Under the pieces are notes generated by a model. It saw only the letters and a list, made by a program, of their open reading frames with translations. It searched no databases and was not told the origin of the DNA. The translations under genes were made by a program, and so were the position numbers. 64,000 nucleotides of DNA, from IMG/VR virus record IMGVR_UViG_3300035670_000147, positions 1 through 64,000 of that record; one strand, 5' to 3'. The stretch's first letter is position 1, and each line of letters begins with the position of its first letter. Below are positions 16,228 to 56,306 of this stretch, piece by piece. The DNA comes from a virus.

Positions 16228-16299
16228 TGCCCGGTAGCACAATGGTAGTGCACGGCACTGTTAATGCTGGGGTTGTAAGTTCGAGTCTTACCCGGGCAG
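16228..16299 (+). tRNA. tRNA-Asn(GTT)
   Basis: Acceptor TGCCCGG/CCGGGCA plus G discriminator; D-loop TGGTA; anticodon arm CGGCA-CTGTTAA-TGCTG; T-arm GTAAG-TTCGAGT-CTTAC; CCA not encoded. Confidence 0.92.
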
Positions 16300-51238: not shown

Positions 51239-51415
51239 CAATTCGCGAATAGCGAACGTGTTACGGAACGTAGGTCGAAATTTTTTTTGACCGAGGTTTT
51301 GTAACACCTAAATATCCGGCAAAAACGCGGCATATTTGGTAGTGCACGTTTTTTATTGCCGGTCGAACGCGCATTCTCCGGCAATTTCCTTCCACTGCGC
51401 GGTGGAGAATACCAA

Positions 51416-51949
51416 ATGAAGAGCGTGAGTTTAGCCACTCAGGACGTTTTGGCTCAGTTTCGCAAAAAGGCGGCTGATTTGCCGTACGAGTCCCACCCTT
51501 ACGCGAACGCCGCACGCGGTCGCGACAATCTCGGTCTTTCCGAGTGGACCGAGGAGCACCGCCACGACGCCACGATGGCGATGGCTATGTGGGTGACCAT
51601 GATCGTCGGCCAGTCGATTGCGTCGACGCTGAACGAAATGGTGGCGCTCATGAAAATCGCCTGCGAAACGGGCGACGAAGAGCATAAGAAGGCCGCCGAC
51701 GAACTCGCGGGGTCTATGACGTTTGTTGAGAACGTTTTTAAGACTTTTATGTGCTCTATCGATTTTGAGCACGTCGCTGAGCAATTGTTTGCGGACGGCG
51801 AAAAGATGGAGAAAGAGCGTCGCGAAGAATTCGCGGCGGCGGAGGCGGCGAAGGCAAAGGTTGCGAAGTCAAATATCGACAACCCAACCCCGAGCCCGGC
51901 GCCCCTGAGCGGCACCGTTCACCGGCGCTGGGAGCCGAGCCAGAACTAA
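51416..51949 (+). CDS. hypothetical protein
   Basis: GGAG RBS; helical 177 aa. Confidence 0.7.
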   Translation: MKSVSLATQDVLAQFRKKAADLPYESHPYANAARGRDNLGLSEWTEEHRHDATMAMAMWVTMIVGQSIASTLNEMVALMKIACETGDEEHKKAADELAGSMTFVENVFKTFMCSIDFEHVAEQLFADGEKMEKERREEFAAAEAAKAKVAKSNIDNPTPSPAPLSGTVHRRWEPSQN

Positions 51950-51971
51950 CGCAACAGCGTTAGCGGCCGAG

Positions 51972-52018
51972 AAAGAGCCACCCCAGAATGCAGTCTCTGG
52001 GGTGGCTCTTTTATTTTT
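51972..52018 (+). terminator. Rho-independent terminator
   Basis: AAAGAGCCACCCCAGA...TCTGGGGTGGCTCTTT followed by T-rich sequence. Confidence 0.8.
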
Positions 52019-52036: not shown

Positions 52037-52867
52037 ATGTCCGCTTCCGTTGAAACGCTGCTGCCCGGCTATCACGCGCGGCGGCGTGAAAGTTTGGCCG
52101 CCAAGTTGTTGGCGCTCGTCACCGACACGGTTCGTGCCGCACTCCTTGTCGGGGCTCCCGGTACCGGAAAGACTTTCTTTGCCGAGTGCTTTGCGCGCGG
52201 CAGGAAGGCTAAACACTACTTCATTCCGTGCCATCCTTGGTTGACCAACGAAGAGGTTAATCAGGGCGTGGATATCGGCAAGGTGGCGGTCGGCGTCGCG
52301 CACGCAGATGAGGCGTATCTTGACGGCCAGTTGCTGCGCGCGGTCAAAGCAACGGCACATCACGACGTCGTCATCACGCTCGACGAGGTGGAGAAGGCCG
52401 GCAGTCGGTTCTACCCGCTTATTCTGGACTTTCTCCAGCACGGGCGGGTGCCAGACGCGCGACACCACATGCACCAAGCCGACCTGAAACGACTCTTTAT
52501 CGTGCTTACCGCGAACGAAGAGACGGACTTGCCCGAAGCCGTGAAGCGTCGATGTTTTCGCGTGATCATGGAATTCCTTCCTGAGCACATCGAGGTCGAC
52601 GTCTTACGGAAATCGACCGGCGCGCCGGGAGGGGCTTGTCGGCTGGCGGTGCGCATGGCGAACGCCATTCGCACCCGCGGCGAATCCAAGCCGAGCCTTC
52701 AGGAGTTGCGTGAACTTCTGCGGTCTCGTGTTTTGGTGGAATCCGCGGCGGACACAGACGCGCTGATTGACGGGTTTCTCGTAAAGGACCCGAAGGACCG
52801 CGCCGCAATCGAACGTGAAATTCGTTCGCCCGGCGCAGTCTTGTTCGGCGAGTTCGGGAGGAAGTAG
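52037..52867 (+). CDS. MoxR-like AAA+ ATPase
   Basis: Walker A GAPGTGKT, Walker B TLDEVEK, sensor LTAN, L-x-x-A-x-x-RR. Confidence 0.88.
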   Translation: MSASVETLLPGYHARRRESLAAKLLALVTDTVRAALLVGAPGTGKTFFAECFARGRKAKHYFIPCHPWLTNEEVNQGVDIGKVAVGVAHADEAYLDGQLLRAVKATAHHDVVITLDEVEKAGSRFYPLILDFLQHGRVPDARHHMHQADLKRLFIVLTANEETDLPEAVKRRCFRVIMEFLPEHIEVDVLRKSTGAPGGACRLAVRMANAIRTRGESKPSLQELRELLRSRVLVESAADTDALIDGFLVKDPKDRAAIEREIRSPGAVLFGEFGRK

Positions 52868-52937
52868 TCAACGGGGCGCGACTCTGTGGCGGGAGTCGCG
52901 CCCCGTACACCCACGCCACGAAAGGAGGTTGCAAATC

Positions 52938-54389
52938 ATGGCTATAACACTTCGTGAAATGCAGAAGTTTTTGAGCCTGTCGCGGCGCGACGGGGTGGTG
53001 GATTCTGCGCTATACCCGTGGCGCAAAACCGTAGCGCGATTTGCCAATTTCGTGGCGGGGCATAAGCGCTTTCGTAGAGTAGTACTTGACCGCGGATTAA
53101 TTGTAAACACGTGCACTTGCAACGAATGCGTGTTTGCCGGGCGGACAACCAACCCGCAGTCGCTTGTCGACTCGTTAACGCGACGCTACGGTCCTTATGC
53201 CGATCTTGATGACGTTTTGAACGATCTGGAGCGAGCGGCCGCCGAAAAGCAGCCGCAGCAACCCCAGCAAAACGAGCAAAGTCAGCACGAGCAGCCGGCG
53301 CAGGAGCAGGAGCCGCAAAACCAGCAATCGCAGGGCGGTCAGGGTTCGGACAGCGATCAGGACGGCGATCCCGACCCCGACGGGGCGGGAGAACCTGACG
53401 CGCAGTCTCAGCCCCAGCCGGGACAATCTCGCGCGCAGCCAACCGGTTCTGCGCCTGAGTCGTCTCAGCAGCCGCACCCGCAGCAGGTGTTGCAGCAGAT
53501 GAAAGAGGCTTTTCGCGAGGCAGTTCGGACGGCGCAACGGCAGCCCAACTGCCCCGTTGCCGCGAATAACCTCCGGCAGGCAAAGAAGTTGTTGCGAGAA
53601 ACTCGTAAGCGGGTATCGGTTAAACCGAGACCTGTGCGCGAGGGTCCTTCGCTCTCCGCTCGGAAACACCTGACAACTTCCCACGGGAGGTTGCGGCGTG
53701 TGCCGCAAAATTTGCGGAGTCAGATGGCCGAACTGATTAATCGGCTAGTCTTACAGGCCGGGACATCAGGTTCCCAACTGGGTCCTATTCCTGTATTGAG
53801 CCCGCGTAAACTTGTAAATAGGATGCTTGTCCAGCGTCCGTTACAAAACGCACTCAAGGAAGACAGCGTCAGCGGACGTCCGGTTACGCTGTTTCTTCCA
53901 GACATTTCGCCGAGTTGCGAGGCGCAGGCTCAGATCGCCTGCGACCTTGCAAACGCGGCAGGGTACGCCGGAATCTCAGGTTCCGACGTGTTGGTTTTTC
54001 CGCACTGCAACGGCGAAGTGTCCGCGCACGAGGACTACTTTCCGTGGCTTAACGGGAAGCCAGTTACCGACGCCGTCCGCGAGATTCCCAAACTCTACGA
54101 GGACGTTTGCACCGGTCACAGTCGTTTTAAGGTTCGTGTTGTCGTCTTACTAGGCGACCACGACGCGGTTCATCATTACGAGAAAATCGCGGCACTCAAG
54201 ACGGTGCTCCGAGTCGTCTGGCTGCATAACTACCGGTCCTCGTCGGACCGGCGTGACGCGGCGCTGGAGGAATCCAGTTCTTTCCTCGCCCCGGGCTGGT
54301 CTACCGAGGTGATGGAAAAGTTGTCGTTGGTGTCTGGCTGCACCACGACGACAACAATGCTTCGCGGCTTTGGTTTGGCCGTGAAGTAA
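52938..54389 (+). CDS. VWA-like (MIDAS) partner protein with Gln/Pro-rich linker
   Basis: AAGGAGG RBS; LFLPDISPS (DxSxS) and VVLLGD; follows the MoxR ATPase. Confidence 0.7.
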   Translation: MAITLREMQKFLSLSRRDGVVDSALYPWRKTVARFANFVAGHKRFRRVVLDRGLIVNTCTCNECVFAGRTTNPQSLVDSLTRRYGPYADLDDVLNDLERAAAEKQPQQPQQNEQSQHEQPAQEQEPQNQQSQGGQGSDSDQDGDPDPDGAGEPDAQSQPQPGQSRAQPTGSAPESSQQPHPQQVLQQMKEAFREAVRTAQRQPNCPVAANNLRQAKKLLRETRKRVSVKPRPVREGPSLSARKHLTTSHGRLRRVPQNLRSQMAELINRLVLQAGTSGSQLGPIPVLSPRKLVNRMLVQRPLQNALKEDSVSGRPVTLFLPDISPSCEAQAQIACDLANAAGYAGISGSDVLVFPHCNGEVSAHEDYFPWLNGKPVTDAVREIPKLYEDVCTGHSRFKVRVVVLLGDHDAVHHYEKIAALKTVLRVVWLHNYRSSSDRRDAALEESSSFLAPGWSTEVMEKLSLVSGCTTTTTMLRGFGLAVK

Positions 54390-54424
54390 ACGCAGCAACC
54401 GCAGCGCAGAAGGGAGGTAATAAG

Positions 54425-54986
54425 GTGTTTACGTAAATACGGCCCGCGGAGTTAACAACTCGCGCGGGCAATCTATTTTGCGCATTTTAGTTCGTTGGCG
54501 CAGAGTAGACGTAGGACGAAACTAACGAGCACAGGCGAGCGAAAAGTCGCCCGGGGACAAAAGTCGCGACCTCGTCGGTTGCGATACTTTTCGGGGTGGT
54601 TGGTCCTGCACCCATAGAGATACCAGAGAGATAGCCGGGACGTCGCGCAAGCGAAACGCCGGCGACTCGTCTCTGTAAGGCACAGTACCCCGGATTTGTA
54701 GTGGGGCGCGCAAAATGGATAGGCAGGCGCGTTTTATGTAAAATCCGGAGCGCCTGCGGGCGCTTATACGCCACGTCTGAAGGGCCTAGTCCCCGCAGAC
54801 ATGTTTCCTCGTTGTACCTTTCGGCCGCGATAATAATAACTAACGCGCGCCGGTTGTTGCCGCCATGGCCGGTGAACAACGAGCCAGTTAACGCGCGAGC
54901 CCGCGTAAGCGGGTCGTTAACGGGGGACGCCGGGTGGGAGAGTTGCTAGCCTCTCCCACCCGGCGCACATCGCACTTCTTTTTTTT
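54425..54986 (+). ncRNA. candidate large structured ncRNA (about 550 nt), family unknown
   Basis: Dense hairpins, long-range helix, predicted pseudoknot, terminal 16-bp hairpin and T-run; no credible ORF. Confidence 0.55.
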
Positions 54987-55004
54987 AGATATCAGACGCC
55001 GGGG

Positions 55005-55010
55005 TATAAT
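55005..55010 (+). promoter_or_regulatory. -10 box (TATAAT), probably driving a leaderless mRNA
   Basis: TATAAT ends 6 nt before ATG 55017; no SD sequence. Confidence 0.5.
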
Positions 55011-55016
55011 TACGCT

Positions 55017-56306
55017 ATGAGCCAACCACGCATTTTTCCGTTCCGCCGCGTATCTGTCGACCACATGACCCGCGGCGTTTCGCGTGTCTGGTGGCAATTA
55101 GACCGCCTTTTTCGCGACGAGGGTCCGTACTCTTTTCAATTGCAGTACGGCCGCACGGGCGTCCGCGACGCCGCTGACTGGACAAATATCGGGGCGCCCG
55201 TCGTTAATTCATACTTCGCGCTCGACCCAGAGTGGCGCGAAAGCGGCTACGATATAACCTCGCATTATCGTGTCGTTTTAACTACTCCGAACGGTCGCTA
55301 TGTTTCTCAGGCAGCCAGTTGCTTTGGCGAGTTAACCGAAAAAGACTGGTTACTTGCCCGAGAGATTATTCGCAAGGAGCAGTTGCGCAACCGGCTCGTA
55401 TCAATTCCCGGTTATTTGATTAAGCCACTGCGGTACGGTACACCCTGCAAACGGTGCCGCGACCAGTTAACTGACGAAATCTCAGACGCTGATTGCCCGC
55501 TCTGTAGCGGCACCGGTTTCGAGACTGGATACCATACCCCCGTCCCGCTGCAGTGTTGGGATTTGTCGCCGCAAGTTATTCAAGAACAAATCGATAATAA
55601 CATCAAAGGCAATACGCGAGAAAACCCATACGTTAATGCACGCGTAATCGGCTTCCCGGCGTTAAACAAGTACGATATCTGGGCCAACGGCTCGTCCGAC
55701 GAGCGCTGGATGATCGATACAATACAGGTAACAGCCGCCTTGCGGGGCGTGCCGATTATCTATCAAGTGCGCATGGGATTATTACCGTTTAGTAACGCCG
55801 TATACGCAATCGAGATTGGCGGAGAACCAGCCGCTCGCCGCGGGCCCACCCTGCCGATAGAAGGTTGCGGCGACGTTATTGTAGACCACGATTACACGGG
55901 TATTGATGCTTTAATTTATACAACGGCTGCCGGCTGCCCTGTAGAAGGTGCTGATGTTTACTTGTTTACAAAAGAGTCCTTTGACGCGCACGGATTAAAT
56001 ATTGACCGAAGTTTGGCGGCTGGTAAAACAAAAACACGGGTTAACGGGCGCTGGTTACAGTCGCTAAAACTCGACGCGGGCGATTATGTTATCTTGTACG
56101 AGAAGGTCGGCGAGTACGGACCGGACACGCAAGAAATAACCGTCGCGCCTCCCGAGGCCCCGCTGCCAATGTCATATCCGCCGGTTATGGGTTCTCACGA
56201 ACCGCCGCCGGCGCACCAATTACCGGTCGGACGGAAAATACGTACTGTTGTGCCCGGCCGCCCGTCGCCGCCCGATCAGACCGAAAAAGGTTTCTGGGAT
56301 ATATGA
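55017..56306 (+). CDS. putative neck/head-closure protein
   Basis: CxxC...CPLCSGTGF.GY motif; lies between the head and tail genes. Confidence 0.55.
   Translation: MSQPRIFPFRRVSVDHMTRGVSRVWWQLDRLFRDEGPYSFQLQYGRTGVRDAADWTNIGAPVVNSYFALDPEWRESGYDITSHYRVVLTTPNGRYVSQAASCFGELTEKDWLLAREIIRKEQLRNRLVSIPGYLIKPLRYGTPCKRCRDQLTDEISDADCPLCSGTGFETGYHTPVPLQCWDLSPQVIQEQIDNNIKGNTRENPYVNARVIGFPALNKYDIWANGSSDERWMIDTIQVTAALRGVPIIYQVRMGLLPFSNAVYAIEIGGEPAARRGPTLPIEGCGDVIVDHDYTGIDALIYTTAAGCPVEGADVYLFTKESFDAHGLNIDRSLAAGKTKTRVNGRWLQSLKLDAGDYVILYEKVGEYGPDTQEITVAPPEAPLPMSYPPVMGSHEPPPAHQLPVGRKIRTVVPGRPSPPDQTEKGFWDI

Follow-up and report, generated by a model that had tools for sequence, protein, structure and literature searches.

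A Conserved Structured RNA behind an ATPase/VWA Gene Pair in Uncultured Jumbo Phages

The Locus and Its Genes

The window, that is, the whole stretch of DNA analysed here, comprises the opening 64 kb of an IMG/VR virus record that is 73 kb long and estimated to be 36% complete. All its large open reading frames (ORFs) lie on the + strand. Between a 524-aa ORF (52815-54389) and a 429-aa ORF (55017-56306), with a tail-sheath-like gene further downstream of the latter, there is a gap of 627 nt (54390-55016) that contains a structured RNA, also on the + strand. At E ≤ 0.001, 221 proteins are related to the 429-aa protein, many of them encoded on contigs of ~200 kb, and the phage therefore belongs to an uncultured clade of jumbo phages. 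A collection of isolated phages gave no DNA or protein match. Of the six sequencing runs in which the sequence was located, none is recorded as RNA. Among the reads of four DNA runs only near-identical contigs were found, with G>A at 54853 and an inserted A after 54605 (X4).

The RNA closes an accessory cassette of 3.9 kb, which consists of a 197-aa gene, an AAA_5 ATPase, a VWA/MIDAS protein, a mini-ORF, and the RNA itself. The features of the locus are the following.

51356-51949, + strand: 197-aa gene, first of the cassette
51971-52012, + strand: terminator-like 17-bp hairpin and T-run, upstream of the ATPase gene
52037-52867, + strand: AAA_5 (MoxR/NorQ-type) ATPase, 276 aa (Pfam E = 1.4e-12)
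52938-54389, + strand: VWA/MIDAS-type partner gene, with the conserved start at 52938 (start of the listed ORF, 52815)
54410-54436, + strand: Shine-Dalgarno sequence (54410-17) and mini-ORF of 3 codons (GTG 54425 to TAA 54436)
54441-54965, + strand: structured RNA proper, with putative ends (homology in 9 sequences, covariation)
54979-55016, + strand: T-run (54979-86), promoter-like element (54984-95), and -10-like element (55005-10) for the next gene

The 429-aa protein heads the tail module and has no assigned family. It is 55-92% identical among the 120 relatives listed of the 221, and it carries four invariant cysteines in a CxxC...CxxC pattern.

Homologues of the Gap

The comparison comprises ten distinct homologous sequences, the window and nine other loci. 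When IMG/VR was scanned with an alignment of the 429-aa protein, 38 loci were found. In 11 of these (seven distinct sequences) there is a gap of 580-1150 nt before the 429-aa gene that aligns with the gap of the window. A profile of the gap has no full-length match in the remaining 27, most of which have another gene directly adjoining the 429-aa gene and a few of which contain gaps of an unrelated kind. A metagenome scan with an alignment of the upstream VWA protein, in which three of 80 candidate stretches were confirmed, added L116, a distant form (L117), and L115, the last of which reads, by eye, identical to L029 across the part that it covers. Scans with short motifs led no further: the five matches to a 20-base motif in genome contigs are all confined to the motif, and two motif scans of IMG/VR (73 and 21 matches) recovered only class-A records that were already known (the gene order of this class is given below).

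The RNA is homologous over its full length in nine other distinct sequences; of L117, only the 3′ domain aligns. The closest relative, L004, is 82% identical to the window, and the mean column identity among the first eight sequences is 46%. Near-invariant islands alternate with stretches that are completely different. The alignment was handled in several ways. The 5′ part was aligned with a covariance model (R1) that covers 54529-54684 and helices P3-P6, and the alignment of this domain, being fitted to the structure of R1, is biased towards that structure. The counts for P10/P10a/P10b, P7, and P9 come from plain MAFFT alignments. MAFFT misaligned L027, L029, and L034 in P7-P9, and the P7 and P9 counts use alignments of seven sequences, in which the misaligned L027 was scored as unpaired in P7. 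P1, the pseudoknot PK1, and P11 were assessed by script in each sequence.

R1 finds nine of the ten sequences and nothing else in the 182 kb of DNA searched; the one that it misses (at E ≤ 1) is L117.

Architecture and Covariation of the RNA

The conserved RNA encoded by the + strand of the gap measures ~530-560 nt. It folds into roughly a dozen helices, arranged as a chain of arms (P1 to P12), and includes a single pseudoknot and a single three-way junction.

54471-54530, + strand: P1 hairpin (54471-83/54498-509) with pseudoknot PK1 (loop 54490-97 with 54523-30)
54532-54663, + strand: domain A (P3-P6), covered by covariance model R1
54534-38/54547-51, + strand: P3
54555-63, + strand: conserved single strand in domain A
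54563-71/54577-85, + strand: P4
54593-98/54609-14, + strand: P5
54634-46/54651-63, + strand: P6, with a GCAA loop (54647-50)
54690-54748, + strand: P7, made up of an outer helix (54690-97/54741-48) and an inner helix (54701-11/54727-37) with a conserved internal loop between them
54749-54800, + strand: P8 hairpin (54749-54/54759-64), conserved single strand, and P9 (54775-79/54796-800)
54808-54883, + strand: three-way junction of P10 (54808-15/54876-83), P10a (54822-53), and P10b (54857-62/54870-75)
54884-54923, + strand: P11, a long hairpin with a GTAA tip (54905-08)
54928-54965, + strand: P12, a 15-bp hairpin whose loop holds a 6-nt palindrome (54945-50)

The + strand folds with a minimum free energy (MFE) of -275.2 kcal/mol, against -233.2 ± 6.7 for shuffled sequences (z = -6.3; none of the shuffles, which numbered only 20, was as good). 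The - strand gives z = -4.35. Among the helices, G-U and U-G pairs number 61 and A-C and C-A mismatches 13, and this excess favours the + strand as the RNA strand.

A preliminary description of the window had proposed a large structured noncoding RNA of ~550 nt at this place, and the strong covariation across homologues bears this out. The helices vary by compensating changes, and several junctions and loops are nearly invariant. Over four counts (domain A, the three-way junction, P7, and P9), 40 of the 73 modelled base pairs are changed on both sides, and 86-91% of cells are paired, against 20-50% in slid controls. In all four counts neither the percentage of paired cells nor the covariation score was reached by any of 500 shuffles. 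The number of pairs with changes on both sides was reached by 0/500 shuffles in two counts, and by 7/500 and 214/500 in the other two. Domain A contributes 33 pairs (90.9% paired versus 35-43% when slid), of which 20 have changes on both sides (0/500 shuffles). The corresponding values are 16 pairs, 89.2% versus 32-46%, and six both-side changes for the three-way junction; 19 pairs, 86.3% versus 33-50%, and 11 for P7; and five pairs, 88.6% versus 20-43%, and three for P9.

At the 5′ end, the local pairing that had been proposed between 54472-83 and 54498-509 forms all 12 of its pairs and is the conserved hairpin P1. In nine of nine sequences P1 is accompanied by a loop-to-tail pairing of 6-9 bp, PK1, with letters that differ in each of them. 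The tail segment is the 8 nt immediately 5′ of P3. The fractions obtained with shuffled tails are 0.000-0.038 in eight sequences and 0.204 in L029, where the pseudoknot is weakest. The RNA thus does have a pseudoknot, as had been claimed, but not the one put forward, which placed AAATCCGG inside a hairpin loop. All the complementary segments quoted in the preliminary description lie in the window where they had been located, and CCGGATTT and AAATCCGG (54690-97 and 54741-48) do form 8/8 pairs; these are the conserved, nested closing helix of P7 and not a loop interaction. P7 itself, with its outer helix, internal loop, and inner helix, is alike in eight of eight separate MFE folds.

Two pairings of the preliminary description did not survive the comparison. 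The long-range alternative for the 5′ strand of P1 (54471-83 with 54708-20) has 13/13 pairs in the window and 8/13 in L004, falling to 2-6/13 in the remaining eight. For the GCAGGCGC/GCGCCTGC hairpin (54723-30 with 54750-57), the corresponding counts are 8/8, 3/8, and 0-3/8. In both cases the counts beyond L004 depend on a global MAFFT alignment, which cannot be relied on where the sequences vary. At the site of this hairpin, L004 keeps the small local hairpin P8 instead. Judged by the aligned sequences, the proposed pseudoknot and the long-range alternative pairing are coincidences specific to the window. All six pairs of P8 form in the window and L004, four of them with changes on both sides; elsewhere the count is 0-3/6.

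The helix CTCGTTGT (54808-15) / ACAACGAG (54876-83) had also been noticed and is P10, the base of the three-way junction. Five of its eight pairs are changed on both sides, and in L034 it is shifted and entirely different. Of the two arms that it carries, P10a is variable and the P10b hairpin highly conserved. P11, a hairpin of 29-49 nt, follows P10 directly in nine of the ten sequences, with stem letters that differ in each. The GNRA-capped stems that had been described correspond to the GCAA loop of P6 and the GTAA loop of P11. The terminal hairpin, P12, is present as reported, except that it has 15 bp and not 16.

The loop of P12 holds a 6-nt Watson-Crick palindrome in six of the ten sequences, in three spellings. 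Among the 127 other hairpin loops in the MFE folds of the ten sequences, only two contain one. The palindrome is absent from four sequences, and four of its six carriers share one spelling, which may reflect a single inherited event. Palindromic loops on long stems dimerise some RNAs, as does the DIS of HIV-1.

A scan for shared 5-bp stems returned only the known helices, G+C-rich palindromes, and purine/pyrimidine tracts. A conserved pyrimidine tract (54804-10) lies just before P10 and can pair with the ribosome-binding site (54410-17) or with the 5′ arm of P12 (54932-42); one or the other pairing is possible in most sequences.

Known Families and Coding Potential

When the whole window was compared with the covariance models of Rfam 15, the only match at gathering thresholds was a tRNA at 16228-16299, which agrees with the earlier impression that the RNA matches no known family. 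The models include those of GOLLD, ROOL, OLE, HEARO, raiA, group I/II introns, and RNase P, as well as tmRNA, 6S, Y RNA, riboswitches, and self-cleaving ribozymes. With the threshold relaxed to E ≤ 10, the region 54200-55200 gave two noise matches to microRNA models, both on the P12 hairpin (21.2 bits where 168 are needed, and 16.3 bits where 107 are needed). ARAGORN finds in the window only the tRNA-Asn (GTT) gene of the phage, at 16228-16299, and no tRNA or tmRNA in the gap. No description of the RNA was found in the literature searched; the supplementary candidate lists of PMC10690425 could contain short pieces of it.

The gap holds ORFs of 130 aa (- strand) and 82 aa (+ strand), and smaller ones. 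None has a family match, and not even L004, at 82% identity, preserves their reading frames. BLASTP of the 130-aa ORF against the ORFs at the same place in L004 and L029 gave nothing, and the tblastn similarity to L004 switches frame for every ORF of the gap that was compared. This switching of frame, together with the lack of family matches, indicates that the gap is not coding, in line with the preliminary description, which had seen no convincing ORF. The substitution pattern tracks the helices. The RNA very probably represents a new family of conserved structured RNAs.

The Accessory Cassette

The ATPase scores 48.3 bits against Pfam AAA_5 (cut-off 22) and is 69-96% identical in the class-A relatives. 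Its gene adjoins the VWA/MIDAS gene, and the two make up a MoxR-type AAA+/VWA pair. In the VWA protein the start is conserved, as is the C-terminal domain, whose D-x-S-x-S motif is invariant in the seven aligned proteins; the protein also has a linker of low complexity. The AF2 model shows no ring; it consists of a small domain at the N-terminus, a linker predicted to be disordered, helices, and a VWA-like domain. By VIA-align, the best match of the modelled C-terminal domain is the VWA domain of Ro60 from Thermus phage phiLo (Z = 8.8 over 140 residues), and the Rea1 MIDAS domain gives Z = 6.8. The top Foldseek matches are the NorD VWA and MDN1 MIDAS domains, at a weak E of ~0.01. The assignment as a VWA protein, based on the motif and on middling structural scores, is thus a putative one. 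The 524-aa protein has no VWA, TROVE, or other Pfam match at E ≤ 0.01 and does not reach an NCBIfam threshold; a PDB sequence profile search matched low-complexity regions only. No known structure was matched by the N-terminal domain (Foldseek E > 1; best Z 3.2), which was modelled with a pLDDT of 86.8. The family of this protein comprises 104 clusters in a large protein collection, unnamed but for one stray source label. As for the 197-aa protein, it has no match in Pfam, PHROG, or NCBIfam, and the protein atlas returned nothing usable.

The order of genes is constant in the class-A records with enough flank (7/7): a 329-aa gene, the 197-aa gene (whose homologue is at the same place in six of the seven), the ATPase, the VWA gene, the RNA, and the 429-aa gene. 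In all ten distinct loci that bear the VWA gene, the RNA is directly behind it. The gene on the 3′ side varies, being a different one in L116 and preceded by an inserted ORF in L006, and the VWA gene is therefore the constant neighbour of the RNA. Class-B genomes have a spacer of 61 nt between their counterparts of the 329-aa gene (64% identical) and of the 429-aa gene. Neither the VWA gene nor the RNA (searched with R1, i.e., its 5′ domain) was found in five class-B sister genomes that are 94-100% complete, and R1 matches each of four class-A records once, at full length. The cassette thus sits between two core genes in some phages of this uncultured clade (~200 kb) and is absent in others.

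In L006, the RNA and the promoter of the 429-aa gene are separated by an insertion of ~450 nt (2480-2935), which holds a 129-aa ORF of no known family.

Signals Around the RNA

A strong Shine-Dalgarno sequence followed by an ORF of 3-5 codons is found ~20-35 nt past the stop of the VWA gene in nine of the ten sequences; L117 is, by eye, without it. Four copies of the mini-ORF encode M-P-F-P and differ at third codon positions only.

We infer the transcription, ends, and processing of the RNA from signals in the DNA. The hairpin at 51971-52012 probably marks the start of an ATPase-VWA-RNA transcription unit. No promoter motif was seen immediately before the RNA; the ATPase gene has a terminator-like hairpin ahead of it, and downstream of the RNA there is a hairpin with a T-run. 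For these reasons the RNA is likely to be co-transcribed with the ATPase/VWA operon.

At the 3′ edge, the end of P12 in the window (54965) is 13 nt from the T-run (54979-86), and a terminator scan omits this hairpin. Since the U-run would have to start within 0-2 nt, P12 is no canonical terminator in the window. A U-run directly follows the last hairpin in L005, L017, L027, L029, L034, and L117, and in L006 and L116 there is a second hairpin that is directly followed by a U-run. The promoter-like element of the next gene is conserved across relatives, and its motif occurs three times in the window, against 0.44 expected.

What the RNA May Do

Several readings of this locus were weighed. That the gap is an overlooked protein gene or a functionless spacer is barely credible. 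Two of its ORFs, of 130 and 82 aa, are open in the window, but they have no family matches, the 130-aa ORF finds no counterpart by BLASTP in L004 or L029, the tblastn similarity jumps between frames, and substitutions follow the helices. A ribozyme or the remnant of a mobile RNA (a group I/II intron or a self-cleaving motif) is very improbable. In its favour are the GNRA loops, the pseudoknot, and the high conservation of nucleotides in single strands and junctions, and also that, compared with the sister phages, the cassette as a whole is an insertion. Yet no intron or ribozyme family scores at E ≤ 10, no gene is interrupted, since phages that lack the RNA start the downstream gene at the same residue, and none of the ten surrounding proteins scanned matches a reverse transcriptase or a homing endonuclease.

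The RNA could also be a cis-acting part of the operon mRNA, either a stabilising 3′ UTR or a switch acting on translation or on read-through into the late genes. It has the same orientation as the operon, with no promoter of its own that we could see, and termination may be leaky in the window given the 13 nt between P12 and the T-run. The elements of a switch would be the pyrimidine tract (54804-10) and its two possible partners in most sequences, the ribosome-binding site and the purine-rich arm of P12. However, the pairing of the tract with the ribosome-binding site is not distinctive, as it is equalled by 7 to 61 of the ~110-140 windows of the same RNA; an RNA of more than 500 nt whose junctions are invariant and which contains a pseudoknot goes far beyond what stability or attenuation needs; and the next gene has a separate, conserved promoter-like element. 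We regard a cis-acting role as distinctly unlikely. A stronger case, if still a doubtful one, can be made for an assembly of RNA only, in the manner of ROOL and GOLLD, which would self-oligomerise and act without the neighbouring proteins, the operon being a convenient slot for transcription. The size, the ornate multi-arm fold, and the phage setting resemble those of ROOL and GOLLD, the P12 loop is palindromic in six of the ten sequences, and family and structure searches detected no RNA-binding domain in the proteins of the cassette. On the other side, there is no match in sequence or structure to ROOL or GOLLD, and such an assembly has no need of strict adjacency to the VWA gene (10/10) with a varying 3′ neighbour. 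ROOL and GOLLD typically adjoin tRNA genes, and there is none beside this RNA.

The explanation that we favour as a whole, and hold to be somewhat probable, is that of a conserved RNA that closes the cassette, is co-transcribed with the ATPase/VWA operon, and then acts as an RNA in its own right. The particular step that makes it a ribonucleoprotein (RNP) partner of the VWA protein and the ATPase, possibly in dimeric form, is put forward by analogy and more tentatively. The RNA would be a scaffold or a client of the VWA/MIDAS protein and the ATPase, on the model of Ro60 (VWA) with Y RNA, of OLE RNA with its co-encoded proteins, or of Rea1/midasin acting on RNA-protein particles. Two copies might be joined through the palindromic loop of P12, an idea that comes from the frequency of palindromes in this loop (6/10, versus 2/127 in other loops). 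The ribosome-binding site and mini-ORF at the 5′ edge might recruit ribosomes, or keep the untranslated tail covered during synthesis. The notion of an RNP is suggested by the position of the RNA behind the VWA gene in ten of ten loci, by the lack of both in the five class-B genomes, and by the nearest solved VWA fold being that of a phage Ro60. This linkage shows co-inheritance rather than interaction, and it may reflect the shared descent of one inserted cassette in one clade. It also counts against an RNP that no recognisable RNA-binding domain was found in the VWA protein with Pfam TROVE or with the structure search of its N-terminal domain. A bolder version, again by analogy and in our opinion unlikely, would make this a new class of large phage RNA and the RNA subunit of a hitherto undescribed particle with the MoxR ATPase and the MIDAS/VWA protein, dimerised by kissing loops, contacting host ribosomes through the ribosome-binding site and mini-ORF, and redirecting or protecting translation or RNA turnover. 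Ro60-Y RNA, or the RNPs remodelled by midasin, would then have a viral counterpart in this particle.

Comparison with Known Systems

Very few large complex RNAs (>500 nt) of bacteria and phages are known to us: rRNA, RNase P, group I/II introns, tmRNA, OLE, GOLLD, ROOL, HEARO, and raiA. Every new large RNA has opened new biochemistry or structural biology. OLE RNA is a structured RNA of ~600 nt that forms an RNP with proteins encoded beside it (Oap). The gap RNA does not match its model, the partner proteins differ, and OLE is found in Bacillota, whereas the gap RNA is found in a phage clade. With ROOL (RF03087) and GOLLD (RF01998) it shares a length of several hundred nucleotides, a multi-armed form, carriage by phages or prophages, and the lack of an assigned function. 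According to PMC12286853, these two form homo-oligomers, and the gap RNA may likewise self-associate, via its palindromic loop. In contrast with them, to which it has no detectable similarity, it lies in a protein operon, behind an ATPase/VWA pair and with a ribosome-binding site and mini-ORF before it, and it is much rarer, as ten distinct sequences were reached.

Ro60, a protein with TROVE and VWA domains, occurs with adjacent Y RNA genes, and phage versions, including that of Thermus phage phiLo, are described in PMC12135203. The cassette likewise has a gene for a putative VWA protein beside a noncoding RNA gene in a phage, and the VWA domain of phiLo Ro60 is the structurally closest one (Z = 8.8). 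The protein of the cassette differs in lacking the TROVE/HEAT ring (Pfam, AF2 model), and the RNA differs in having no match to Y RNA and in being roughly four times larger; moreover, Ro60 systems lack a MoxR-type ATPase partner. The layout of AAA_5 ATPase and VWA protein, the latter with a low-complexity linker and a C-terminal MIDAS-type domain, is the same as in the MoxR/NorQ/CbbQ ATPases and their partners NorD, CbbO, and ViaA, and in the MIDAS of Rea1/midasin. MoxR/VWA pairs are known in other jumbo phages, according to PMC2147016, and the literature searched yielded no described pair with a dedicated structured RNA. It is the context that sets the gap RNA apart: a compact cassette with a remodelling ATPase, a MIDAS protein, a mini-ORF, and a candidate dimerisation loop. 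If the RNA works with the MoxR/VWA pair, it would be an RNA client for a widespread and poorly understood class of chaperones. Its partner, assembly state, and contact with ribosomes are directly testable from a cloned fragment of 3.9 kb.

Other Elements of the Locus

Between the stop of the ATPase gene and the start of the VWA gene (52871-52906), there is a G+C-rich hairpin of 15 bp without a T-run (z = -2.8). It precedes a ribosome-binding site with the same spelling as that of the mini-ORF, and no anti-RBS loop was observed in it.

The promoter-like element before the 429-aa gene ends 6 nt before its ATG (55017), with no ribosome-binding site between them, and this gene may therefore have a leaderless mRNA. 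The motif recurs in relatives, twice in L116, where near-identical copies, each with a leader of ~100 nt, stand before two different small genes (~1672-1790 and 2308-2420).
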